Source: Puniceicoccales bacterium (GTDB lineage Bacteria > Verrucomicrobiota > Verrucomicrobiia > Opitutales > JAIRKQ01). From it: a DNA stretch of 35,473 bases. The translations under genes and the position numbers were made by a program. The notes under the pieces were generated by a model. That model saw nothing but the letters and a program-made list of their open reading frames with translations, ran no database searches and was not told where the DNA came from. The stretch spans positions 1 through 35,473 of the forward strand of contig JAITIO010000042.1 of NCBI GenBank assembly GCA_031279395.1, read 5' to 3'. Below, piece after piece: positions 5,255-34,243 of the stretch (the stretch's first letter is position 1; each line of letters opens with the position of its first letter).

Positions 5255-5716
5255 ATGAAATGCCCGAAGTGCGGACATTTATATTCAAAAGTTACCGATA
5301 CTCGTGTTACCGCGGATGAGACTTCCATCCGCCGCAGGCGTGTATGCCTAAAGTGCGATCACAGGTTTTTTACGAATGAAGTCGTGTGCATCGAATACCC
5401 AATTGTCATTAAACGGGACGGCCGAAGGGAAGAGTTTGACGGAGAAAAAATCAAAGCCGGGCTAATGAAAGCGTTTAAGAAACAAAGCGGAATCAAGGAA
5501 AAAGTTAATAATATCCTCAATGGAGTTTTGGCAGAAATTATTTCGAAATACCCGGAAAAAGTTCCTTCGGAGAAAATTGGAGACGTGATAATGGACCGAC
5601 TAAGGACCTGCGACCCAGTTGCCTATCTGCGCTTCGCCAGCGTATACAAAAATTTCGAAACGGCAAAAGATTTCGCACTGGAATTTGAGCAGCTGTTGCT
5701 AGATCTCCCAAAGTAG
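5255..5716 (+). CDS. nrdR: NrdR transcriptional repressor of ribonucleotide reductase genes
   Basis: MKCPKCG...CLKCDHRF zinc ribbon followed by an ATP-cone (IKRDGRREEFDGEKI). I start at ATG 5255 rather than the upstream GTG 5201 of the ORF track, because NrdR proteins begin at the zinc ribbon. Confidence 0.9.
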   Translation: MKCPKCGHLYSKVTDTRVTADETSIRRRRVCLKCDHRFFTNEVVCIEYPIVIKRDGRREEFDGEKIKAGLMKAFKKQSGIKEKVNNILNGVLAEIISKYPEKVPSEKIGDVIMDRLRTCDPVAYLRFASVYKNFETAKDFALEFEQLLLDLPK

Positions 5717-5859: not shown

Positions 5860-7185
5860 ATGAATAGTGAGATAAGCCATGAGATAATAAAACGCTTCGG
5901 AGTATTGATAGAAAAAAAAGTCTGTGGGGAAGAACTGACCGATAATGAAATACGAGAGATAACAAATGCCATAATTACCAAAAAGATTCCCGACTTCCAG
6001 TTATCGGCTTTTTTGATGGCAGTGTATTTCCAAAATATGAGTATCCAGGAGGCTTCGACATGGACGGAAGAGTTGATGTTATCCGGTGATATCATCGACA
6101 TTGGGATGATTTCCGCCCCTAAAGTTGATAGGTGCTCCACGGGAGGAGTGGGAGATAAGTCGGCTTTTGTATTGATAGCAATTGCTGCTTGTTGCGGAAT
6201 AGCAGTTCCCACATTGGTCGATAGCTACGACGGATTGATCATTTCTGATTTAGACAAAATGTCGTCCATTCCCGGGTTTGACCATAAATTTGATACTAAA
6301 AAGTTTCAAAAACAACTTAAAAAAATGGGATGTTGCTACTATCAACAGCCAGAGAATATTGCACCCGTGGATGTAACTCTCGATAAGGTTAGGCGTCTAA
6401 TTGGCACAATTTCCAGTGTTCCGCTTGTGACAGGAAGCATTTTGGGGAGCAAGTTGTCTTCCGGGGCAGATGGTGTTGTTGTCGATGTTAAGTGGGGCAA
6501 TGGTTCCTTCGTAAAAGATATGGAGCAAGCCAAACAGCTCGGTAGAATGATAACACGGGTCGCTCGAGCTTTGAATAAAAAGTGCATTGCGATTGTGACG
6601 GATGCCAATCAACCCCTTGGAAAAACGGTAGGAACTTGGTTGGAAATCAAAGAAACCATCGAATTACTACAGGGACAAGGCGATGCAGAAATGCAGGATT
6701 TAATCCTACGAGTTGGCATGGAATTCATCAGATTAGCGGGAGTCGCAGGGTCAACATTGTCAGCCAAACAATTGATCATCAAAAAGCTTTCCGATGGATC
6801 AGCTCTAAATAAATTTAAAGAATTGATAGCAGAACAAGGAGGAGATGTATCATATATCGACAATCCGGAAAAGTATCCACAGGCTAAATATTCCCGCAAA
6901 CTATCGGCACAAAAACGGGGATACATACATACGGTAAACGCTGGTATGATTGCACGAGGGGTGAGTATTTTGTCCAAAAAACCCGATGGGACGACAGACC
7001 ATATGGTTGGAGTATCCGATATAATGAAAGTTGGCATGCAAATTAAACAAGGAGAACCGCTCATAATGATTCACTATAATGATGAAACAAACCTTGAATC
7101 TGCCCTGGAGTACTTTAGGGATGCGTATAGACTTGCTCCGAAAAGGCCGGCATTAAACGAATTAATCGTGGAACGTATTGCGTAA
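5860..7185 (+). CDS. Thymidine/pyrimidine-nucleoside phosphorylase family protein with a degenerate catalytic loop (possible pseudoenzyme)
   Basis: Collinear with DeoA/PyNP: IPDFQLSAFLMAVYF, STGGVGD, SSIPGF, VVDVKWGNGSF, TDANQPLG, and a C-terminal PYNP_C-like region. The SGRGLGHTGGT loop, however, reads VDSYDGLIISD. The start is uncertain (ATG 5860 or 5788). Confidence 0.75.
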   Translation: MNSEISHEIIKRFGVLIEKKVCGEELTDNEIREITNAIITKKIPDFQLSAFLMAVYFQNMSIQEASTWTEELMLSGDIIDIGMISAPKVDRCSTGGVGDKSAFVLIAIAACCGIAVPTLVDSYDGLIISDLDKMSSIPGFDHKFDTKKFQKQLKKMGCCYYQQPENIAPVDVTLDKVRRLIGTISSVPLVTGSILGSKLSSGADGVVVDVKWGNGSFVKDMEQAKQLGRMITRVARALNKKCIAIVTDANQPLGKTVGTWLEIKETIELLQGQGDAEMQDLILRVGMEFIRLAGVAGSTLSAKQLIIKKLSDGSALNKFKELIAEQGGDVSYIDNPEKYPQAKYSRKLSAQKRGYIHTVNAGMIARGVSILSKKPDGTTDHMVGVSDIMKVGMQIKQGEPLIMIHYNDETNLESALEYFRDAYRLAPKRPALNELIVERIA

Positions 7186-7188
7186 CAT

Positions 7189-8796
7189 ATGAAAACTGCA
7201 TGGTTATTTCTTATAATCTCCTTATGTATACTCCCCGGATGTAAAAAAAAGGAGGCAAATGTTGTCCAACAAAATTTGAGGATATCTTCTCCAAATGAGC
7301 TATTAAATGCGGACCCACAGCAGGTATACAGCAGCAGCGACTGCAAGATTATGCAGGCTGTTTTCGAAGGGTTAGTTGTGCCAGATCCTGAAACAATGAA
7401 ACCGCTACCTGGGATGGCAGAGCGATGGAAGGTATCATCTGACAAAAAAGTATACGAGTTTTTCCTAAGGGACAATGCCATGTGGTCCAATGGAACTCCC
7501 GTCACGGCAGAAGATTTTGTCTATGCGGCCAAACGAGCACTATCGTCCAAATTTGCCTGTGCGGCAGTGGATGTGTTTTTCCCTGTCCTCAATGCCAAAA
7601 AATTTTTTAATAGGGAAATTCGAAACTTTTCCATGGTTGGAATACGTGCGGTAAATTCTCGAACGTTGATAATTGAACTGGAGAAAAACGACCCATATTT
7701 TCTGGTAACTTTGATGCACCAATGTTGGTTTCCGTTAAACGATGAGGTTATTGCATCGTTAGAAGAGTATTCCCGCCCTTTGGACGACTTATCCAATGTT
7801 TTTAAATTAAAAATCATTTCCAATGGCCCATTCACTTTTGCGGAGAGGAAGCCAGGGATAAGTTTGCTATTGAAAAAAAATCCTAAATATTGGGATGCCG
7901 ACAATGTATTGCTATCATCGGTAATGTTTTCTACAAACAACAATCAGGCCCTAGCCGTAAAAAATTTTTCAGAGAGGCAAGTAGATATCGTTGAACTTCA
8001 ATGGGACGATGAATCTACAATCGGAGATTGTTTGCAAGACAAAGAATTGATGTTATCTCCGGCGCTCGAGTGTTTTGGCCTTGCATTTAACGTTACAAAC
8101 TCTGTTTTTAAAAACAAAAATATTAGGTTTGCCATGGCTATGGCCATTGACCGAGAAAAGTTGTTAGCCAAAATAGGGAAAAACAGAAAACTTGCAGCCT
8201 ATAGTTTTGTTCCGATCTATGATAAAAAGTATGAGAGTACACCTCTATTCAAGCAAGATATTCAGCTAGCACGCAAGCTATTTGAAGAAGCAGGCTATAA
8301 TTCTACGGTAAAATTTCCACCCGTAAAAATATTGTGCAACACCTTGGATGCCGGATTATACGCCATAATCCTAGAACAGGTTAGGGAAGATTGGAAAAAT
8401 GTTCTAGGGGTAGATACTTTCGTAGATAGTAGAGGTTTTGACTCCTTTTTTGCCCATAGAAAGAAAGTAGACTTTGATGTAATCAAAGTTGCACTTGGAG
8501 GTTTGCATTGCAACCCTGCGTTTATCATGCACATTTTTATGTCCAAAGATTCCCATAACTATGGCAAATGGGCAGACCCAACCTACGATGGGATGCTAAA
8601 ACGGATCAAAAAAACCAACAGCAAGAAAAAACTCAGAAGATTAACAAAGGACATGGAGTTGTACCTAGCCAATGAAATGCCTGCCATTCCGCTGTTTTTT
8701 AATTCCCATTCATTTTTGGTAAGAAAATCCCTGAGGGGGTGGTTTCCCAATCCAATGAACATGCATCCACTTAAATTTGTTTACTTTGCCCGCTGA
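7189..8796 (+). CDS. Family-5 (OppA/DppA-like) ABC transporter substrate-binding lipoprotein, orphan
   Basis: 535 aa. The signal peptide has lipobox LPGC. Overall OppA-like pattern: EGLVVPDPETMKPLPGMAERWKVSSDKKVYEFFLRDNAMWSNG..VTAEDFVY. There are no permease or ATPase genes nearby. Confidence 0.75.
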   Translation: MKTAWLFLIISLCILPGCKKKEANVVQQNLRISSPNELLNADPQQVYSSSDCKIMQAVFEGLVVPDPETMKPLPGMAERWKVSSDKKVYEFFLRDNAMWSNGTPVTAEDFVYAAKRALSSKFACAAVDVFFPVLNAKKFFNREIRNFSMVGIRAVNSRTLIIELEKNDPYFLVTLMHQCWFPLNDEVIASLEEYSRPLDDLSNVFKLKIISNGPFTFAERKPGISLLLKKNPKYWDADNVLLSSVMFSTNNNQALAVKNFSERQVDIVELQWDDESTIGDCLQDKELMLSPALECFGLAFNVTNSVFKNKNIRFAMAMAIDREKLLAKIGKNRKLAAYSFVPIYDKKYESTPLFKQDIQLARKLFEEAGYNSTVKFPPVKILCNTLDAGLYAIILEQVREDWKNVLGVDTFVDSRGFDSFFAHRKKVDFDVIKVALGGLHCNPAFIMHIFMSKDSHNYGKWADPTYDGMLKRIKKTNSKKKLRRLTKDMELYLANEMPAIPLFFNSHSFLVRKSLRGWFPNPMNMHPLKFVYFAR

Positions 8797-9391: not shown

Positions 9392-11377
9392 ATGGGATCG
9401 AAAAAGGTTGGATTTTGTGCATTGATCTTGGTGGCTACTTTGTCGTTACCTGTCGAATCTTCCTTGAATAACATCGGAGAATTGCAGCGAAAAATATTCA
9501 TCCAATCCACCCAATTTGATTCCAGCAATCCAATGCCAGAAATAACGACGGAAATAAATTTAACAGACCTGGGGACACCTCCCATGATCAAATCAACGAA
9601 AAAAAAGATCAATGTCTCATTTTTCAACGACGAAAATACCTTTCACCGGGCCACTCGAAAGAAATTGCTAGAAGAAGTCGAAGCAAATTGGCAAACGTCC
9701 ACACCAAAAGATCCGATTTTAGACAACCATTCGGCCACCGATTTATATGAAAACACGCTTTTTGAAAGGGCAAATAGAATTATCATTCCCCGAGTGAGAT
9801 TCATAGATACCCCTCTGGTACGGGTGATTGAATCCTTGGCCAATCTGGCGGAGGTCAATGATCCCACCATCGATAATAATGGAAATGGAATAAACATCGT
9901 GCTGCTTGGAATGGAAAGTGTGGGAAATGAACCGATGGTGAATTTGAATTTGAAAAACATTTCTTTCTACCGTTTAGTTGAATTGATCGCCCAATCGGTT
10001 TCCTATCAATTTGATATCACCAAGGATACGATCATTATTTACAAGCGTAACCTAACCGAAGGCATATTAGATACACAATTTTTCCCCATATCCCGCGCAA
10101 CTCTGGTCCGACTGACAGGTATTCAAGGCATAAATCATCACATATACAACGCCCCGGGTTCCCCGGAAAATGTTGCCGACGAAGAACATGCCATAAAAGA
10201 ATTTTTTCAACGGGCAGGAATAAATTTCACGGATGTTGCCGGTAGTAGTTTAGCATTCGACGGTTCCCAGATAATAGTTACCAATACGGGAAGAAATTTA
10301 AGAAAAATTAGCAACATACTTCAAAAATACTCCGAAGTTAAACAGGTTGAAATCGAGACAAAATTTCTGGAAATTCAACAGGGAGTGCTCGATGAGTTGG
10401 GCATTCGCTGGCAATTAGGAAGTAAAAATGCGGATAATAAAATATTTTTTCAAACTGGGAAAACCGTTGACAATTTACGGCATGATAATCTACGCACCCT
10501 AGTAGAAACATTCGCATCTACAAATTTTTCAAGGGGGGATGGCAAAATAGTTGGATCCAATCTAGAAGCCAGTCCCATTGCCTTGTCGAACCAACCGCCC
10601 GGACTTCCAGGGCAAATAAACCTGGGCGCATCAGCCACACCCCTGACGAATTTTACCGGTGTATTAAATAGCCTACAGTGCAACGTTATGATCCAAGCGT
10701 TGGAACAGCATGCGGGGTCGGATCTTATGAGTGCTCCAAAACTGACGGTGCTTTCCGGAAAGACGGCAAAAATTGTCATAGCCATGGAATTACGCTATCC
10801 TCAGAGCTATGGGGATACACATTCCGAAGTCGGTACGGGGTATTCCGGATTAGGCGCGTCGAGTTCCGCTGGAGTGACGATAACGGCTGGTACACCGCAA
10901 AATTTTACCACACGCAACGTTGGTGTGGAAATGAGTGTAACTCCCATCGTCGAAATGGATGGTAGCATCAGTTTGCAGCTTGAACCAAAGGTCACCGAAT
11001 TCGAAGGGTTTGTTGAATATGGTGGAGTAAATGTTGCCGTGACGTCAGGCAATACGGTCACCATTCCATCCGGATTTTATCAGCCGATATTTTCAACTCG
11101 AGAAATCCACACGGAGGTTAATGTTTTCGATGGAGCAACCGTTGTCATGGGCGGTCTAACCCGTGAAGAAGTGAAAGAGGTAAACGACAAAGTCCCCATA
11201 TTGGGAAACATTCCCCTGCTCGGTAAATTGTTTAGATCGAAAAGTGAAACCATTCAGAAACGAAACCTGTTGATTTTTGTCACTGCCCACACCATCTCAC
11301 CCTTGGGAAACAAGAAATTGCTACCCAACGGGGAACAATCCCCGAGCCAAATAGTTCCGATCAAAAACTCAAGGTGA
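9392..11377 (+). CDS. Secretin-family outer-membrane channel (GspD/PilQ/SctC superfamily)
   Basis: 661 aa. Signal peptide MGSKKVGFCALILVATLSLPVESS. N-domain repeats (IIPRVRFIDTPLVRVIESL...; QIIVTNTGRNLRKISNILQKYSE). Secretin core (VEIETKFLEIQQGVLDELGIRW; DLMSAPKLTVLSGKTAKI). C-terminal KVPILGNIPLLGKLFRSKSETIQKRNLLIFVTAHTI. Confidence 0.9.
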   Translation: MGSKKVGFCALILVATLSLPVESSLNNIGELQRKIFIQSTQFDSSNPMPEITTEINLTDLGTPPMIKSTKKKINVSFFNDENTFHRATRKKLLEEVEANWQTSTPKDPILDNHSATDLYENTLFERANRIIIPRVRFIDTPLVRVIESLANLAEVNDPTIDNNGNGINIVLLGMESVGNEPMVNLNLKNISFYRLVELIAQSVSYQFDITKDTIIIYKRNLTEGILDTQFFPISRATLVRLTGIQGINHHIYNAPGSPENVADEEHAIKEFFQRAGINFTDVAGSSLAFDGSQIIVTNTGRNLRKISNILQKYSEVKQVEIETKFLEIQQGVLDELGIRWQLGSKNADNKIFFQTGKTVDNLRHDNLRTLVETFASTNFSRGDGKIVGSNLEASPIALSNQPPGLPGQINLGASATPLTNFTGVLNSLQCNVMIQALEQHAGSDLMSAPKLTVLSGKTAKIVIAMELRYPQSYGDTHSEVGTGYSGLGASSSAGVTITAGTPQNFTTRNVGVEMSVTPIVEMDGSISLQLEPKVTEFEGFVEYGGVNVAVTSGNTVTIPSGFYQPIFSTREIHTEVNVFDGATVVMGGLTREEVKEVNDKVPILGNIPLLGKLFRSKSETIQKRNLLIFVTAHTISPLGNKKLLPNGEQSPSQIVPIKNSR

Positions 11378-11533
11378 TATTTTGCCGAACGGTGTCACAA
11401 AGGAACACACTATCCCATCGATTTTTGGCAAAAAAAGTCTCCAATCAGTTCGACATCGGTACGTTGTAAAAGTTTTGCCGCAACAAAACATTGTGCTTGA
11501 CTTGGGATGGTAATTATGAAATTTAATACACCC

Positions 11534-13066
11534 ATGTTATCCACGGTTTTCTCCTGTGCATTGCGAGGCATTGACGCTGTTAATATTGCCGTTGAGGTCA
11601 ATTCCGGAGAGCGAGGAGATTTGAAATTTATAATCGTTGGGTTACCTGATACGGCCATAAAAGAATCCTGTGACAGGATATTTTCTGCACTTGTAAATAG
11701 CGGATATGCCATTCCCTATACCAGAACGACCGTAAACTTGGCACCTTCGTATATCAGAAAAGAAGGATCTTTCTACGACCTGCCCATTGCACTCGGTGTA
11801 ATTCAGAGTACGGGTCAGTCTTACATCCATAATTTGAGTGAGTTCATAGTCGCTGGCGAACTGGGGCTCTCTGGGAAAATTCGAGAAATCAAAGGCGGTC
11901 TTACCTTTGCCATAAAAGCAAAAAAAGAGAGGAAAAAATTACTATTGCCCGTGAAGGCTGCCCAGGAAGCATCGTTTGTCGATGGTGTAGAAATTTTCGC
12001 AGTGAGTAATCTAAATGAAGCGGTTAAATTTCTGGCTGGCCAAATAAAATTAGACCCCCTGGAACACAAAAATTTTCTTACCCTACTAAAAAATGAAGAC
12101 CGCCTAGACTTTTCCGAAGTAAAAGGCCAAGAAAGTTTACGCAGAGCCGTAGAAATAGCCGTTGCCGGAGCCCATAATATTCTAATGATCGGACCTCCTG
12201 GCGCCGGAAAATCGATGATTGCCAAACGTATCCCAAGCATAATGCCCATGCTCGCCTTCGATGAATTCTTGGAAACGATGAGTATTTATTCGGCGGCAGG
12301 ATTACTCATGGCAGAAAAAAATTCCCATTTCGAACGTCCATTTCGGTCTCCCCACCACACGATTAGCAACGCAGGTTTACTGGGAGGAGGCAGCATCCCA
12401 TGTCCAGGAGAGATTTCACTGGCACACAACGGGGTATTGTTTTTGGATGAGCTATCGGAATTTCGCCGCACAACCCTAGAATCTTTGCGCCAACCACTGG
12501 AAGATGGCAGCGTGACGATTTCCAGGAGTTCCGGAAAGGTAAAATTTCCATGCCGAACGATGATTGTTGGAGCAATGAATCCGTGCCCATGTGGATATTT
12601 GGGGGATAAGACGCACAGGTGCAAATGTAGCCACCTGGACATTCGACGGTATAGGTCCCGCATCAGTGGACCAATGATGGATAGATTCGACATGCAGATA
12701 AACGTTCTTGCCGTTCCGATTGAAGATATTCAGTCAAAAAAATTTTCCGAATCATCCATGAACATACGGGTTCGCGTAGAAAAAGCATCAAAAATTCAAA
12801 CGGAACGTTTCAAATCTTCGCAAAATGGGCGTAATGCCCACATGTCCCACGGCGAAGTGGTGAAATTTTGCAAGGTCGATGAGGAATCTTCTGACCTGTT
12901 GGCAACGGCCATGAGACAATTGGGCCTTTCCGCCAGGGCATACGATAAAATTTTAAAAGTTAGTCGCACAATCGCAGATTTGGAATGTGAAGAGAAAATT
13001 TTATCGCATCACATTTTAGAATCCATTCAGTATCGCTCATTGGAGATGATCATAGATGGAAGATAG
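11534..13066 (+). CDS. comM: ComM/YifB Mg-chelatase-like AAA+ protein
   Basis: Lon-protease-like N-domain, Walker [20 protein letters not shown], a C4 cluster NPCPCGY...CKC, and a C-terminal [18 protein letters not shown]. The start is chosen at MLSTVFS (ATG 11534); the ORF track begins at 11507. Confidence 0.9.
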
Positions 13067-15241: not shown

Positions 15242-15299
15242 GATCAGGGTCCATGAGATAAAAATATTTCCATTTATTTTAGATTTGAAACAATTTCAT

Positions 15300-15328
15300 T
15301 TGACTAGTTTTCAAAGAAAGATCATAAT
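15300..15328 (+). promoter_or_regulatory. Sigma70-like promoter candidate for the T3SS operon
   Basis: TTGACT (15300-15305), a 17-nt spacer, then CATAAT (15323-15328), about 64 nt upstream of the sctJ ATG at 15392. Confidence 0.4.
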
Positions 15329-15391
15329 ATTCGGGTGAATTATTTGAATAATGATGACCTAGAGGGGTTGGCAAATGTGGGAAGATTTACT

Positions 15392-16276
15392 ATGGAAAAG
15401 AATGGTTTTTGTAAAAATTTGTGCCTGTTTTTTTCATTATTTATGATGCTGATACTGGTTGGCTGCGGAAAAGTTGACTTGTTGTCAAATCTGCCGGAAG
15501 AGGAAGCAAATGAAATTGTTTCTTTGATGCAACAGCATCATATTTCTGTTGTCAAAAAACCTGGTTTGGAGCTAACATGGACCATTGTGCTGAAAAACTC
15601 CGATGAATTTTCTAAGGCGGAGAAAATTTTAAAAATCAATGGCTATCCCAGGGTACAATATAATACCATAGGGCAAGTTTTCCAGAAAAGCGGATTGGTA
15701 GCCTCTCCTCTGGAGGAAAAAGCAAGGTTCATGTATGCCCTGTCGGAAAGTGTTGCTTCGACGTTGAATAAAATTCCTGGGGTTTTGACGTCGCGCGTCC
15801 ACATAGTACTGCCAGAAAATGATCCCTATTCCGATGCAGATACCGAAGCATCGGCTGCCATATTTTTGACCTATAAGGTTGGTTCGAGTTTGGATGAATC
15901 CGTACGAGAAATCAAATATCTCGTAGCAAATAGTGTCCAGGGCTTGGACTACGATAGGGTATCGATCGCTTTGTTCCCGGTAGCGACTGAAGACAACACA
16001 ACCAACAATAGTAATTTCGATACAAATGTGAGTGTTTTGGGACTGCGAATGGCAAGTGATGCGGCGACAAAATTTCTTACCATAGTTATCGTCCTCAGTG
16101 TATTGCTACTGTGTAGCATAGGAGCTGCTGCATTTTTCTTCTTCGAATCCAGAAAAAGTAAAAAGGCAGCTGCGGCTTCTAAACCTACCATCAATAACCC
16201 CGTAGTCGTGCAGAACGATACGCAAAATGTTAGTGACCTTGATGAGGAACCGGAGACTACGCAAGAGGAAAAATAG
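15392..16276 (+). CDS. sctJ: T3SS inner-membrane ring lipoprotein SctJ (YscJ/HrcJ/PrgK family)
   Basis: Lipobox LILVGC, then LLSNLPEEEANEIVSLMQQHHISV...GLVASPLEEKARFMYALSESVASTLNKIPGVLTSRVHIVLPE and a C-terminal TM. The start is moved to ATG 15392, because the track's GTG 15335 lies only 7 nt after the -10 candidate. Confidence 0.9.
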   Translation: MEKNGFCKNLCLFFSLFMMLILVGCGKVDLLSNLPEEEANEIVSLMQQHHISVVKKPGLELTWTIVLKNSDEFSKAEKILKINGYPRVQYNTIGQVFQKSGLVASPLEEKARFMYALSESVASTLNKIPGVLTSRVHIVLPENDPYSDADTEASAAIFLTYKVGSSLDESVREIKYLVANSVQGLDYDRVSIALFPVATEDNTTNNSNFDTNVSVLGLRMASDAATKFLTIVIVLSVLLLCSIGAAAFFFFESRKSKKAAAASKPTINNPVVVQNDTQNVSDLDEEPETTQEEK

Positions 16277-16283
16277 ATAGGGA

Positions 16284-16970
16284 TTGCAAATGGTTGAAAT
16301 AGTTGAAAGTCTAAAAAACGTCATAACAGCCGATTTTCAATACTTCAAAAATTGGTATGATTTCAATTTTAATGTGGAAAAATACCTACCGGCCCAGGAG
16401 TTTGAAAAAGTCTTTAGGGTGTATGATAAAAATATTTTTAACATTCTTTTGACATCAAAGTGTGCCCAAACAGATTTTCGGAGAAATTTGTTAAAAATAC
16501 TGGGTTTGAAGGATTCCGTTGACTACGACGTTTGTGCAAGACCGGTAAAGTTGGTAATACACAACAAAGATCGTTTGGTCCGGGCAATGAAGGTGGCAGG
16601 AACCATATTTCATTATGGAGATGTAACAAAAATAATTGGCAAAAATGAATTAAATGCGCTGATAGAATTTATGGGACAGGAAGTCTATTCATTCATAGTT
16701 AAGAGGAGGATGGTTCTGTGGAAAATGTTGCCAAACTTAAAAGTTAAAACCGTAAAAATGCCACTCATTCAAAAGATCACCTCATCGGGCAAGTGCATAC
16801 TAAACAATGCCCTAGTCGGATTGCCCGACGAAGTAAAAAAAAGATTGGAATTGATGCTTGGCGAACATTTTGACATTCCTTCAGAATATGATGAAGCTAC
16901 GACAAATAAGTGTTTAGAGCTTATAGAATTCTCCCTGGAAAAATTAAATGACGAAAATCACACCGGATAA
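16284..16970 (+). CDS. Hypothetical protein, weakly SctK (YscK)-like by position and pattern
   Basis: It sits between sctJ and sctL, as sctK does in canonical loci. VAGTIFHYGDVTKIIGKNELNALIEFMGQEVYSFIV and KKRLELML resemble the YscK segments LVLHGEAIRR...LVNQETLRQII and KRLSLRL as I recall them. Confidence 0.5.
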   Translation: MQMVEIVESLKNVITADFQYFKNWYDFNFNVEKYLPAQEFEKVFRVYDKNIFNILLTSKCAQTDFRRNLLKILGLKDSVDYDVCARPVKLVIHNKDRLVRAMKVAGTIFHYGDVTKIIGKNELNALIEFMGQEVYSFIVKRRMVLWKMLPNLKVKTVKMPLIQKITSSGKCILNNALVGLPDEVKKRLELMLGEHFDIPSEYDEATTNKCLELIEFSLEKLNDENHTG

Positions 16971-17664
16971 TACTATGGGAATCGCAGATATTTACGAAAT
17001 TTCTATTGGCAGCTTTGACTTGAAGCAATCGGGAAAAATCTTGAAAGCCGAATCGTATGCCAATTTCATGGCTGGCAAAAACGTGCTCACTACGACAAAG
17101 AAGAAATGTGACGAGATTTTGCAAGAAGCCAGTCAAAAAAGCAATCAAATCATCAAGGATGCTGAAGCAAAAGCCAATGAGATAATCGAACAGGCAAAAC
17201 AAACAAAAAAACAGGAAGAAGAGCGAGGATATTCCGAAGGATTTGAAAATGGAAAGCAGCAAATCTCAAATGAGATGATGAACTTTGTTTCGAAGAGTGC
17301 GAACAGCTTTTCAAGACTCGAAGGAGATGTCGTCGAAGTTGTTAAATCTGCCCTCCGGAAAATTATCGGCAAAATTGACAAAACCGAATTGATTGTCAGT
17401 GTTGTAAGGAATTCATTGCAAAAAATTAAAACACAAAAACAGGCGACCCTAAAGGTTGCCCCCGGAGAAGCACAAGTATTGCGAGATAAGGTACAAGATT
17501 TAACCAAGGATACTCCTGTTTTGGAATTTTTAGACATCTGTGCCGACACACATCTTCAGCCCGGTTCATGTATTTTAGAAACTGAGTTGGGAGTAATAGA
17601 CGCAAGTATTCCCGTTCAATTAACTGCCATAGAAAATGCTTTATCAAAGGCGAAATCGCGATAG
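16948..17664 (+). CDS. sctL: T3SS stator protein SctL (FliH/YscL family)
   Basis: Charged coiled N-half ([31 protein letters not shown]). C-terminal [30 protein letters not shown] is typical of FliH/SctL. An alternative start is ATG 16975, just after the sctK-like stop. Confidence 0.8.
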
Positions 17665-17666
17665 TT

Positions 17667-19016
17667 ATGGATAAGGAACAAGACAGTCATAATCCCTTTG
17701 GATACATAGCAGAACATCTCGAACAAGAGATAGAGGATTCTACCCTTGTCCAAGTCAAAGGAAAGGTCATTCAAGTTGTTGGTACGATCATAAAAGCATC
17801 CGTGCCAGGCGTTAAAATAGGGGAACTATGTCTTTTAAAAAACCCCTGGGAGGAAGCGGAATTGATGGCAGAAGTAGTAGGGTTCTCTCAACAGGCCACC
17901 ATTTTGACCCCGATTGGAGACATTCGTGGGGTTTCGTCAACTACGGAGGTAGTCCCAACCGGTAGAGTTCACATGGTTCCAGTGGGAGATAATTTGCTTG
18001 GTCGAGTAATAGATGGTTTGGGCCGTCCAATCGACGGGGATAAAAAGGGTCCCCTTGAAACTACAGATTTTTATCCGGTCTACAGTGATCCGCCAAACTC
18101 AATGCTGAGAAATCCCATCGACAAACCACTGGCGTTAGGTGTCCGGGCACTCGATGGACTACTGACCTGTGGTGAAGGCCAAAGGATGGGTATTTTTGCC
18201 GCCGCAGGGGGAGGTAAAAGTACACTTCTGGGACAAATTATCAGAAATACTGAGGCTGAAATTAATGTCCTTGCGCTAGTTGGGGAACGTGGCCGCGAGG
18301 TACGAGAGTTTGTGGAGAAAGATTTGGGTGAAGAAGGATTAAAGCGATCCGTTTTGGTCATTTCTACCTCTGACAGGTCATCGATGGAACGTCTAAAAGC
18401 AGCCTATGTTGCCACTGCCATAGCCGAATACTTTAGGGATAAGGGAAGGAGGGTGTTGCTTATGATGGATTCTGTTACCCGTTTTGCCCGTGCGCAACGC
18501 GAAATTGGGTTGGCAGCGGGAGAACCTCCCACCAGGCGTGGATTTCCTCCGTCTGTTTTCGAAATACTACCGAAATTAATGGAACGGGCAGGCCAGTCGG
18601 AAAAAGGATCAATTACAGCTTTGTATACCGTACTCGTAGAAGGAGATGATATGACGGAACCGATAGCAGATGAAACAAGATCCATATTGGACGGTCACAT
18701 CATCCTGTCAAGAAAACTAGCGGGGATGAATTATTATCCGGCCATAGATGTTCTATTGAGTGTTAGCCGCGTTTTTAACCAAATAACAGATGAACGGCAC
18801 AAAAAGGTTGCATCCAAGTTGAGGACAATTTTATCCAAATATCAGGAAGTTGAACTGTTGGTTAGAATTGGGGAATATAAGCGTGGTGCTGATAAGGTTA
18901 CCGATGAAGCAATTGATAAGATAGAAGCGGTTAATAATTTTTTGCGACAAGGATTACATGACCGCGATGATTTTAAGACGACAATAGATAAAATGGCACA
19001 AGCTGTTGGATTATAA
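17667..19016 (+). CDS. sctN: T3SS ATPase SctN
   Basis: 449 aa. Walker A AAGGGKST, Walker [13 protein letters not shown], and [35 protein letters not shown], in the F1/FliI/YscN family. ATG lies 2 nt after the sctL stop. Confidence 0.95.
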
Positions 19017-19495
19017 TGGCGAAGTATATTCTAGAGGAAATGCTGCGGGTGAGAAATCTTCGCAAAGATACTGCCGAAAAGAACCTGAAGCAAGCACAAA
19101 GGTTAGTCGAGGAAGCAAAGGAAAATGTAGAAAATGCAAGGAAAAAACTGGAAGAATTTAAGGTTTTTATAGAAAAAGAATCCGAACGGTTATACAAAAA
19201 AGTAATGATGCAAAAAGTAAAAAAGGAAGCCGTTGATGCCCTACACTACGCCATTAAGGTTCTAAAAAGCAAATTGGTAACACACGAACAAAACCTGATA
19301 ACAGCTAAAGATAACTTGGTCAAAGCCGAAAAAAATTTGGAAGAGAAAAGAGAAGCTTTACAAGAGGCAAATAAAAATGTAGAAAAAATAGAATCACATA
19401 AAGAAGAGTGGATAAAAGAGGCGATGAAAGAAGAAGAACTTGTTGCTGACAAGGAATTAGAAGAGTTCGCCAAAAAAAAGGAACAAGAAGAGTAA
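19016..19495 (+). CDS. sctO: T3SS stalk protein SctO (YscO/FliJ-like coiled coil)
   Basis: 159 aa, an entirely heptad-like K/E-rich coiled coil. There is a TAATG overlap with sctN, and the position after sctN is canonical. Confidence 0.65.
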   Translation: MAKYILEEMLRVRNLRKDTAEKNLKQAQRLVEEAKENVENARKKLEEFKVFIEKESERLYKKVMMQKVKKEAVDALHYAIKVLKSKLVTHEQNLITAKDNLVKAEKNLEEKREALQEANKNVEKIESHKEEWIKEAMKEEELVADKELEEFAKKKEQEE

Positions 19496-19514
19496 ATTTT
19501 AACAAGGAGTAGTT

Positions 19515-20567
19515 GTGGCAGATAAAATAAAAAACCAATTCACGGGAAAAGAAAAAGGGGAGTCATTTGACGAAGATGTCCTTTCTAAGAAAGAAATTGC
19601 TGAAATAGGTGAGAAAGCGGATCCACGTGATGTATCAATTTTTACAGAAAAAATTGCAAAAAATAGGCATAATCAAGGAATAAATGATTTTGATAATCCT
19701 AGAGATCATAAGTATGATCAACGGGAAAGTGATTCCAGTGCCCCCAGACTGGATTCCCAAAAACACGGACTTGACGATGGTGGACATAATAGTCCGAAAG
19801 CCTTCCCGGAGTCTAAAGAGGTGAAATTTACGAGAAATGAGTACAGGCAACAGGAAAATGGTTCCAGTGTCCCCAGACTGGATTCCCAAAAACACGGACT
19901 TGACGATGGTGGACATAATAGTCCGAAAGCCTTCCCGGAGTCTAAAGAGGTGAAATCTATGTATTTTCCAAACCCAGATCAAAAGGATTTTCCAACACTT
20001 AAAAATATGAACAATATTCAGGTAAGTGATACGCCATCTGCGAACGAGTATGTGAAGCCACAGAAGCGAGGCTCTTCCCCAAAGGACGTGGATGCTACGG
20101 AAGTAAAGGATACATCTGCGATAAGCGGAACAAAAATTTTGGATAGCATTCAGTTACAACACGTTGAACCAAAGGTCAATGAATCGGCACAAGTTATAAA
20201 AAATCTGGCGATACAAGTTGCAGAAAAAATCATAGCGACTAATGAAGCCCTAAATACCAGACAGGAAGTACGAATTACACTGCAAGACGGTATTCTAAAG
20301 AACACGGAGGTTTCTATTTCTAAGGAAGGGAAGGCGTTGAACGTTGTCTTTGCTACCGGGTCCATTGATTCCGAAAATCTACTGCGGGCAAATAGTGATA
20401 CCCTTATGCGGCAATTGCAAAACAATCTTAAGGACACAGATCGTATTGAAATTGAGATTGAACAGCATGAGCAAAGTGCGAGTGATAATCAGAACAATGA
20501 TGGCCGCTCCAGGGAAAGATTTGGAAATCAGCAACAAGGAGAAGATGAAGAAAATCAGGACAAATAA
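19515..20567 (+). CDS. sctP: T3SS needle-length/substrate-switch protein SctP-like (FliK/T3S4-type C-terminal domain)
   Basis: GTG start preceded by AAGGAG. The N-terminal two thirds are hydrophilic and repeat-containing. C-terminal VRITLQDGILKNTEVSISKEGKALNVVFATGSIDSENLLRANSDTLMRQLQ resembles the FliK/YscP C-terminal domain. Its position after sctO is canonical. Confidence 0.6.
   Translation: MADKIKNQFTGKEKGESFDEDVLSKKEIAEIGEKADPRDVSIFTEKIAKNRHNQGINDFDNPRDHKYDQRESDSSAPRLDSQKHGLDDGGHNSPKAFPESKEVKFTRNEYRQQENGSSVPRLDSQKHGLDDGGHNSPKAFPESKEVKSMYFPNPDQKDFPTLKNMNNIQVSDTPSANEYVKPQKRGSSPKDVDATEVKDTSAISGTKILDSIQLQHVEPKVNESAQVIKNLAIQVAEKIIATNEALNTRQEVRITLQDGILKNTEVSISKEGKALNVVFATGSIDSENLLRANSDTLMRQLQNNLKDTDRIEIEIEQHEQSASDNQNNDGRSRERFGNQQQGEDEENQDK
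19710..19956 (+). repeat. 129-nt (43-codon) in-frame tandem duplication inside sctP
   Basis: 19733-19827 and 19862-19956 are 95 nt each and differ at one position (gtgcccc versus gtgtccc). The preceding 23 nt of each unit are also related (aagtatgatcaacgggaaagtga versus gagtacaggcaacaggaaaatgg). Confidence 0.95.
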
Positions 20568-30445: not shown

Positions 30446-30463
30446 AACTTTTGGCCAAAAGTT
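30446..30463. promoter_or_regulatory. Perfect 18-bp palindrome just upstream of the STAS-like gene
   Basis: AACTTTTGG|CCAAAAGTT at 30446-30463, ending 4 nt before ATG 30468. Confidence 0.35.
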
Positions 30464-30467
30464 GGTT

Positions 30468-30878
30468 ATGCATGAGATAAAAAAGTTTTCTTCGGGAAAT
30501 GTCGTTGTGATGACTTTATCAGGGAAATTGACTCACAGTGACTATGTAAACATTGTTCCATTTCTTGCAAAATTGATAAAAAAGTATGGCTTGATCAGGA
30601 TTTTAATCGAGCTCGACAATTTTGAAGGATGGAAAGTTTCGGCTACCTTGGACGATATCGTTTTCGTTTTTCGATATTCTGCACACATAGAACGAATGGC
30701 ATTTCTGGTTCACGCCAAACAAAATAATCTTGCCTTACTGCTCGACCGGCCATTCGGTAGGGCATTCGGTGACAATGTTAAATATTTTCACCAAAAATAC
30801 TGCGAAGATGCCTGGCAGTGGATATGCGATGGAGCGAAAGATGTGCAAAATGCTACCTTTCCCCAAGATTTCGCATAA
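30468..30878 (+). CDS. STAS/SpoIIAA-like (SEC14-type) domain protein
   Basis: VVVMTLSGKLTHSDYVNIVPFLAKLIKKYGLIRILIELDNFEGW...IERMAFLV matches the SpoIIAA-like small-domain family pattern. Confidence 0.6.
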   Translation: MHEIKKFSSGNVVVMTLSGKLTHSDYVNIVPFLAKLIKKYGLIRILIELDNFEGWKVSATLDDIVFVFRYSAHIERMAFLVHAKQNNLALLLDRPFGRAFGDNVKYFHQKYCEDAWQWICDGAKDVQNATFPQDFA

Positions 30879-33602: not shown

Positions 33603-33692
33603 GGAGAGATGGCAGAGTGGTTTATTGCATCGGTCTTGAAAACCGAAGTGCTGTCAACGGCACCGTGGGTTCGAATCCCTCTCTCTCCGCCA
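33603..33692 (+). tRNA. tRNA-Ser (anticodon UGA), CCA encoded
   Basis: Hand fold: acceptor GGAGAGA/TCTCTCC, 3-bp D stem GCA/TGC, anticodon stem TCGGT/ACCGA with loop CTTGAAA, a long variable arm (GTGCTGTCAACGGCAC), T loop TTCGAAT, discriminator G plus CCA. There is one T-T mismatch in the T stem. Confidence 0.85.
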
Positions 33693-34156: not shown

Positions 34157-34243
34157 GGTGGGATATCCAAGTGGCTAAAGGATGCAGACTGTAAATCTGT
34201 CGAGTTTCACTCTTCAAGCGTTCGAATCGCTTTCCCACCACCA
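34157..34243 (+). tRNA. tRNA-Tyr (anticodon GUA), CCA encoded
   Basis: Hand fold: acceptor GGTGGGA/TCCCACC, D stem TCC/GGA, anticodon stem GCAGA/TCTGT with loop CTGTAAA, a long variable arm, T arm AAGCG-TTCGAAT-CGCTT, discriminator A plus CCA. Confidence 0.85.

Follow-up and report, generated by a model that had tools for sequence, protein, structure and literature searches.

What are six injectisome genes doing by themselves among housekeeping genes? The question is raised by contig JAITIO010000042.1 (assembly GCA_031279395.1) of a Puniceicoccales bacterium, whose whole stretch of 35,473 nucleotides (nt) is called the window here and which carries a compact set of type III secretion system (T3SS) genes, sctJ-K-L-N-O-P. 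The original prediction, made from the DNA letters alone, had left two options: an injectisome dispersed over the genome, with this set as one of its parts, or a reduced or repurposed module. We favor the first and put the probability that the module is one operon of a scattered injectisome at roughly 0.6; selection, conservation, the behavior of the sctP repeats, and separate sctQ-sctR modules in sister lineages all speak for it, short of proof for this particular genome. The six genes are co-directional and tightly packed within 15.3 to 20.6 kb of the window and, with the block ahead of them, are laid out as follows.

15262..15328, + strand: conserved upstream block with a promoter candidate (from sequence comparison and a scan; promoter function putative)
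15392..16276, + strand (open reading frame [ORF] open from GTG 15335): sctJ, inner-membrane ring lipoprotein (TIGR02544)
16284..16970, + strand: sctK, sorting-platform adaptor (Pfam YscK, our own SctK profile, PscK structure match)
16948..17664, + strand: sctL, ATPase stator and negative regulator, FliH homologue (NF005392, TIGR02499)
17667..19016, + strand: sctN, T3SS ATPase (NF005391, TIGR02546)
19016..19495, + strand: sctO, coiled-coil stalk, FliJ homologue (Pfam YscO)
19515..20567, + strand: sctP, needle-length ruler and substrate switch with a C-terminal T3S4 (HpaP/FliK-like) domain (Pfam HpaP)

The products were identified by using the curated cutoffs of TIGR and NF models, Pfam gathering scores, hidden Markov models (HMMs) of our own, and comparisons with PDB structures; the module components had already been named by the Prokaryotic Genome Annotation Pipeline (PGAP) in GenBank. 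SctJ scored 190.9 bits with TIGR02544 (cutoff, 162; 1.8e-56), and its translation has the lipobox LVGC, with a transmembrane helix at the C terminus. SctL passed both NF005392 (186.9 bits; cutoff, 159; 2.7e-55) and TIGR02499 (1.6e-37, above the cutoff), and SctN passed NF005391 (763.7 bits; cutoff, 657) and TIGR02546 (666 bits; cutoff, 605), with intact Walker A (AAGGGKST) and Walker B (RVLLMMD) motifs. SctO matched Pfam YscO at 4.9e-20, and SctP exceeded the gathering score of Pfam HpaP (2.1e-10) but not the cutoff of TIGR02514 (1.6e-7). The second gene had been called a weak SctK candidate. The identity held and the adjective did not, as the protein exceeded the gathering score of Pfam YscK (6.7e-7), reached 2.1e-15 with our HMM built from genes lying between sctJ and sctL in related loci, and belongs to a family whose profile matches the PscK structure 6UIE at 1.7e-7.

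The order of these genes parallels that of the flagellar fliFGHIJK operon gene for gene, by homology or by position: FliF corresponds to SctJ, FliG to SctK (positionally only), FliH to SctL, FliI to SctN, FliJ to SctO, and FliK to SctP. Because there are also weak secondary matches to the FliH, FliI, FliJ, and FliK models, we considered a misread flagellar operon of the fliF-K type, along with a chimeric assembly or binning artefact. All of the flagellar equivalog models (FliF, FliG, FliH, FliI, FliJ, and FliK) nevertheless stayed under their curated cutoffs, whereas the Sct equivalogs exceeded theirs; the FliF model gave SctJ 40.9 bits (cutoff, 130), and every FliI model fell below its cutoff on SctN. 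In PDB searches, PrgK, MxiJ, and EscJ were the best matches of SctJ, well ahead of FliF, and injectisome ATPases ranked above FliI for SctN. SctJ, moreover, is a short lipoprotein, unlike FliF; SctK matches PscK; no flagellum-specific genes lie nearby; and, as described below, assemblies made independently from different samples share these junctions. The non-flagellar assignment made in the original prediction was thus upheld, a flagellar affiliation is ruled out, and the chance of a misreading or an artefact is negligible.

The coordinates of the ORFs and the sequences at the junctions agree with the anatomy first described for the operon. A 7-nt gap separates sctJ from sctK, sctK overlaps sctL by 23 nt, a 2-nt gap follows sctL, sctN and sctO share a TAATG overlap, and 19 nt lie between sctO and sctP, with AAGGAG 6 nt 5' of the GTG start of sctP. 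Initiation of sctJ at ATG 15392 gives a lipoprotein signal peptide, MEKNGFCKNLCLFFSLFMMLILVG/C, that ends in the lipobox LVGC, and in the relatives L001 and L002 indels disrupt the reading frame between it and the −10 box. The part of the ORF that precedes this codon, from GTG 15335 on, is consequently read as untranslated, and ATG 15392 is probably the true start, judging from these alignments. Upstream of sctJ, the promoter candidate noted earlier was located, with a −35 box (TTGACT, 15300 to 15305), a 17-nt spacer, and a −10 box (CATAAT, 15323 to 15328). Its putative function receives no help from the promoter scan, in which 16 promoter-like sites were found compared to 19.4 in shuffled sequence, i.e., no excess over chance. 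Both boxes lie, however, within a block of ~60 nt (15262..15328) without a single difference among the window, L001, and L002 (100% identity), against a synonymous divergence of ~0.5 in the adjoining genes. Conservation is also high, small indels aside, in the ~57-nt leader that runs from the −10 box to ATG 15392, and the conserved sequence as a whole (15262 to 15391) may bind a regulator or form a structured 5' untranslated region. No terminator was found by scanning 3' of sctP, and there was no significant fold there (z = −0.09). The six genes are most likely a single promoter-driven operon.

We then asked whether this operon is under selection or in decay. The same locus was found in two independent metagenome-assembled genomes (MAGs), L001 (JAIRKQ01) and L002 (JAITBI01), with SmpB, RpoZ, and a major facilitator superfamily (MFS) transporter gene in front, J-K-L-N-O-P in the middle, and Nudix, ACT, Ada, GuaB, and GuaA behind. 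Both MAGs represent species distinct from that of the window (synonymous divergence [dS], ~0.5), and the module thus occurs in at least three species. Its upstream part, through sctP, recurs in Logan assembly L081, the contig of which ends inside sctP; the exact SctN of the window is present in the Logan assembly of run SRR14710901; and the cluster of SctN proteins at 90% has 13 members, from at least eight PGAP-annotated Puniceicoccales MAGs and from JGI metagenomes. Since the junctions are found again in separate assemblies of different samples, the flanks of the module are genuine and are not assembly joins.

In pairwise comparisons of the window, L001, and L002, the ratio of nonsynonymous divergence to dS (dN/dS) of the six genes was 0.03 to 0.25 at dS values of 0.3 to 1.0 (sctK, 0.14 to 0.21; sctL, 0.06 to 0.13; sctN, 0.04; sctO, 0.03 to 0.04; sctP, 0.19 to 0.25), and that of the flanking housekeeping genes was 0.04 to 0.23. 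These values indicate strong purifying selection on all six genes, at the level of the housekeeping genes. A decaying remnant of a once complete cluster, heading for deletion, would fit the fact that, compared with canonical clusters, genes are missing at both ends. The module, in contrast, has no frameshifts or stops in four species and retains its synteny, and the low dN/dS ratios, the recurrence of the locus, the invariant promoter block, the intact catalytic motifs of SctN, and the in-frame sctP repeats together exclude such decay in our view, leaving a remnant very unlikely. Rapid deletion, moreover, is the reported fate of NF-T3SS (nonflagellar T3SS) loci without a function (PMC3459982), which favors a scattered injectisome here.

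The ruler gene sctP varies in a particular way. In the window, it contains an in-frame 129-nt tandem repeat present in 1.8 copies (19719 to 19956, by Tandem Repeats Finder); the sctP of L001 has a 120-nt unit in 7 copies (10124 to 10953), that of L003 has a 108-nt unit in 3.5 copies (5280 to 5658), and that of L002 has no tandem repeat. All three unit lengths are multiples of 3, and the proteins are accordingly of unequal size (350 amino acids [aa] in the window, 522 in L001, 288 in L002, and 415 in L003). In-frame changes in repeat number are known behavior of YscP-type molecular rulers, and the gene keeps its frame while its repeat number shifts, as a ruler that is still used should. The tandem repeats also account for the independent contigs L081, L011, and L013 all breaking inside sctP. 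In L003, a close relative with a 91% identical SctN, the gene directly 3' of sctP (6574 to 8469) encodes a 631-aa low-complexity protein that is rich in Ser/Thr/Cys, has coiled coils, and lacks a Pfam hit; it is absent from the window and is a candidate secreted substrate.

None of the partners of these six proteins is encoded close by. Neither tblastn with a complete reference set from one Kiritimatiellia cluster nor HMMs for W, V, D, F, G, I, Q, R, S, T, U, and C, which we built from ~70 loci and ran on all six frames, revealed SctQ, SctR, SctS, SctT, SctU, SctV, SctW, SctD, SctF, or SctI anywhere in the 35-kb window, in agreement with the absence of export gate, sctQ, sctD, and needle genes reported earlier. 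The export apparatus (SctR, -S, -T, -U, and -V) was likewise missing from L001 and L002 by tblastn and HMM searches, and the secretin SctC was not found in the window. The sole secretin gene there (9392 to 11377, + strand) encodes a member of the Amuc_1098 (type IV pilus) family and was rejected as SctC, with a score of 71.6 bits against a cutoff of 238. This orphan gene has no pilM-P genes adjoining it, is followed directly by a ComM/Mg-chelatase-like gene (11507 to 13066, + strand), and lies at a distance of 4 kb from the T3SS module; the pair is not found upstream of SmpB in L001 and L002. A complete injectisome has been defined as one with at least seven of eight core genes plus the secretin (Abby and Rocha 2012, PMC3459982), more than the window locus holds.

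How unusual is a module that ends at sctP? The expectation that canonical loci run on into sctQ-R-S-T-U was borne out, as N-O-P is continued by (Q-)R-S-T-U in nearly all of the ~70 relatives with enough flank, and D-E-F-G-I lies ahead of sctJ in many of them, e.g., Kiritimatiellia L007, Opitutaceae L020, and Opitutales L005. The canonical clusters of this PVC (Planctomycetes-Verrucomicrobia-Chlamydiae)/Bordetella type share with the window the J-K-L-N-O-P order, the tight packing, and an SctN that is 69 to 75% identical, but they have D-E-F-G-I before sctJ and Q-R-S-T-U after sctP, where the window has an MFS gene before and a convergent Nudix gene after. Since nearly all relatives continue past sctP, the isolated J-P unit, with its break after P, is derived.

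Other Puniceicoccales have broken clusters as well. In a second Puniceicoccales clade (L011 and L013; SctN, 71% identical), J-K-L-N-O-P directly follows ClpP-Skp-PgsA-PgpA. In other termite-gut Puniceicoccales, different fragments are bordered by housekeeping genes: N-O-P-QA-QB-R lies between rplS and GAPDH (L004, L091, and L092), QB-R lies between FabD and GpsA (L093), and QA-QB-R follows RluB (L094); a short contig, L175, carries QB-R. Gene order in these loci indicates recurrent break points before J and at L/N, P/Q, and R/S, and the Puniceicoccales as an order have, on this comparison, shattered the injectisome cluster. An isolated Q-R unit needs a unit bearing N-O-P elsewhere in the same genome, and J-K-L-N-O-P would be its natural complement.

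The Q-R units have features of their own. SctQ is split into two genes in the sister lineages (L091, 9830 to 11849; L092, 9968 to 11805; L094, 8293 to 9995; L093, 9142 to 9951; L175, 56 to 778). QA has a weak SpoA-like C terminus, and in QB (220 to 270 aa) a clear FliMN_C domain is combined with a long N-terminal poly-Asp/Glu region. In every QB-R-type module, sctR is the final T3SS gene and stands apart from sctS and sctT. In L094, a gene for a CesT-family T3SS chaperone and two small unknown ORFs (829 to 1356) lie among metabolic genes 8 kb upstream of QA-QB-R.

If the injectisome of the window organism is scattered, its gate genes should be encoded elsewhere in the genus, and several searches weigh against this. 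No T3SS core gene beyond those of the module came to light for the genus. An SctV profile search gave no Puniceicoccales-named protein among the best 120 matches; the candidates P0028, P0029, P0086, P0071, P0093, and P0099 were rejected as belonging to unrelated organisms with canonical or W-V clusters. Searching with the SctR of L092 gave at least 15 named Puniceicoccales SctR proteins among the best 120, and none of 15 such proteins lay within 14,000 accession numbers of the blocks of at least 10 MAGs of the genus. Accession numbers do run consecutively along contigs, as checked with the SctL/SctN pair MDR1457770/MDR1457771 and with MDR1528631/MDR1528630. No SctR cluster had the multiplicity and mix of sources (~10 members, from NCBI, JGI, and Logan) seen in the housekeeping and SctN clusters of the genus, and codon usage gave no clear assignment for L175, an AT-rich unbinned contig (SctR P0161; G+C, 0.43), which shares no flank with the window. 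A metagenome scan with SctR was dominated by flagellar FliP and yielded no SctR, and the SctQ of L004 as a probe matched only within its own lineage, including L091 and L092. Amino acid composition proved unreliable as a proxy for G+C in choosing candidates.

These negatives must be read with the reach of the searches in mind. They cover the best 120 matches, near the lower end of which the group B SctRs of the Puniceicoccales rank; the MAGs are incomplete; and many SctR genes sit on unbinned contigs of 1.2 to 2.5 kb, which are probably that short because the acidic repeats of QB break assemblies. We therefore regard the SctR and SctV database negatives as real but weak evidence against a scattered injectisome.

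The same negatives are what a reduced or repurposed module would predict. In such a case, the gate, needle, and secretin would have been lost, and SctJ, the ATPase and sorting-platform proteins, and SctP would have been kept, e.g., for docking onto a different export apparatus or for regulation. In its favor, at least 15 SctRs came from other Puniceicoccales MAGs submitted in the same batches, yet neither an SctR nor an SctV could be tied to the at least 10 MAGs of the genus, and purifying selection still acts on all six genes. Incomplete gene sets of unclear role are known as well, namely, the ETT2 (Escherichia coli T3SS 2) and Myxococcales short loci (PMC3459982) and the orphan FliI, FlhA, and FliF reported for Chlamydia (PMC2830194). 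The window module resembles all three in being a subset of T3SS genes with no full apparatus at the locus. It differs from ETT2, which is degraded, in that its genes are under strong constraint, and from the Myxococcales locus, which has kept the export gate, in that the gate is exactly the part missing here.

The constraint itself tells against reduction. SctK, which in known systems links the SctQ pods to SctD, acts only via SctQ and SctD, SctO acts only via the SctV ring, and SctP acts only via SctU and the needle; we know of no function for any of the three in the absence of SctQ/SctD, SctV, and the needle/SctU, respectively. That they are constrained like housekeeping genes argues that the missing partners exist. 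An in-frame change of sctP repeat number, furthermore, is sensible only if a needle is measured, the sister lineages demonstrably hold sctQ and sctR at separate loci, and the negatives for SctR and SctV rest on the best 120 matches. We thus consider a reduced module unlikely, if clearly the foremost competitor of a scattered injectisome. Slightly more doubtful still is the specific form in which the genus is without gate, SctQ, SctD, needle, and SctC and uses an SctJ ring, SctK-L-N-O, and an SctP-like protein as a constrained stand-alone machine or as a plug-in to a non-T3SS partner. If true, this would be an undescribed use of the cytosolic components of the injectisome, and a genus that lacks the remaining apparatus would make the module a new kind of reduced system.

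Returning to the scattered injectisome, we propose the following course of events. The ancestral cluster would have been contiguous (...D-E-F-G-I-J-K-L-N-O-P-Q-R-S-T-U), as it still is in Kiritimatiellia, Opitutaceae, and Bordetella-type loci, and would have been broken into small modules among housekeeping genes in the termite-gut Puniceicoccales, with the genus of the window keeping J-K-L-N-O-P together as one unit. This operon would supply the ring lipoprotein SctJ, the ATPase complex SctK/SctL/SctN/SctO, and the ruler and specificity switch SctP; the export gate (SctR, -S, -T, -U, and -V), SctQ, SctD, SctC, and the needle would be encoded at other loci, as in Chlamydiales and Hamiltonella; and the products would come together as a functional injectisome for the delivery of effectors into a eukaryotic host cell.

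The surroundings of the module agree with those of scattered injectisomes, whose genes are set among housekeeping genes in DNA of native composition. SmpB, RpoZ, and the MFS transporter are encoded upstream, and the convergent Nudix gene, ACT, adenosine deaminase, GuaB, and GuaA genes lie downstream. The G+C content of the module (0.38 to 0.46) is in line with the window mean of 0.41. On both counts, the original description of the flanks and of their composition was accurate, and its guess of a PVC-like lineage was correct. The genomes nearest to the window are termite-gut MAGs labeled Puniceicoccales (Verrucomicrobiota), a chlamydial origin is ruled out by this proximity, and SctN is closest to a PVC/Desulfovibrio/Bordetella-Ysc-like group and not to the chlamydial family. 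The bacterium, an uncultured member of the termite-gut Puniceicoccales, is possibly a symbiont associated with protists; the "Nucleococcus cluster" comprises protist endosymbionts that are related bacteria (PMC8204192), and membership of the window organism in it is a possibility only.

Scattered NF-T3SSs have been documented in all Chlamydiales and in Hamiltonella defensa, and NF-T3SSs have already been detected in Verrucomicrobia (Abby and Rocha 2012, PMC3459982). The window locus is like the former in the small gene groups among housekeeping genes, the lack of a G+C anomaly, the intact conserved genes, and a host-associated lineage within or near the PVC superphylum. It is unlike that of the Chlamydiales in the affiliation of its ATPase and in that the searches gave no further loci for this genome. 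The partition differs too, as had been suspected. In Chlamydia, the groups are J-(K)-L-R-S-T, D...N-O-P-Q...C, and U-V, whereas here J-K-L-N-O-P is one unit, and in the sister lineages Q-R stands alone and R is apart from S-T. The break between P and Q coincides with the ancient boundary between fliK and the fliLMNOPQR operon. We found no description of such an arrangement in the literature on T3SSs of Puniceicoccales, Opitutales, and Verrucomicrobia in termite symbionts, and the J-K-L-N-O-P partition, the Q-R units of the sister lineages, and the extent of scattering in the order appear to be undescribed.

If the injectisome is indeed scattered, the termite-gut Puniceicoccales would be a second independent PVC lineage, after the Chlamydiales, in which host association and the breakup of the cluster go together. 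The breakup would extend beyond that of Chlamydia, with units down to sctQ-sctR and break points that follow ancient flagellar operon boundaries, and would amount to a natural experiment on which T3SS genes need cotranscription, in which J-K-L-N-O-P stay joined and Q-R likewise. It would also point to an injectisome in possible symbionts of termite-gut flagellates.

Some minor observations concern other clusters and the rest of the window. Split injectisome clusters may be common in PVC bacteria; in planctomycete MAG L088 (JAGUZQ01), compared with L033, an sctW-...-sctV group and translocator-like genes lie on a contig other than that of J-L-N-O. At its end, the window contig has a region of higher G+C content (1 to 1033; 0.52, compared with a mean of 0.41) with a truncated tyrosine recombinase ORF (473 to 1033, − strand), possibly the border of a mobile element at which the assembly broke. 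Toward the other end, ARAGORN placed a tRNA-Tyr at 34157 to 34243, and a scan with Rfam at the gathering threshold gave only a tRNA-Ser at 33603 to 33689. An ORF at 30462 to 30878 (+ strand) encodes a SpoIIAA-like/STAS-type protein (PF11964), and genes for STAS proteins, anti-sigma kinases, and PP2C phosphatases lie inside T3SS clusters L083, L085, and L090 (related PVC, Desulfovibrio-type, and other loci), where they recall partner-switching regulators.

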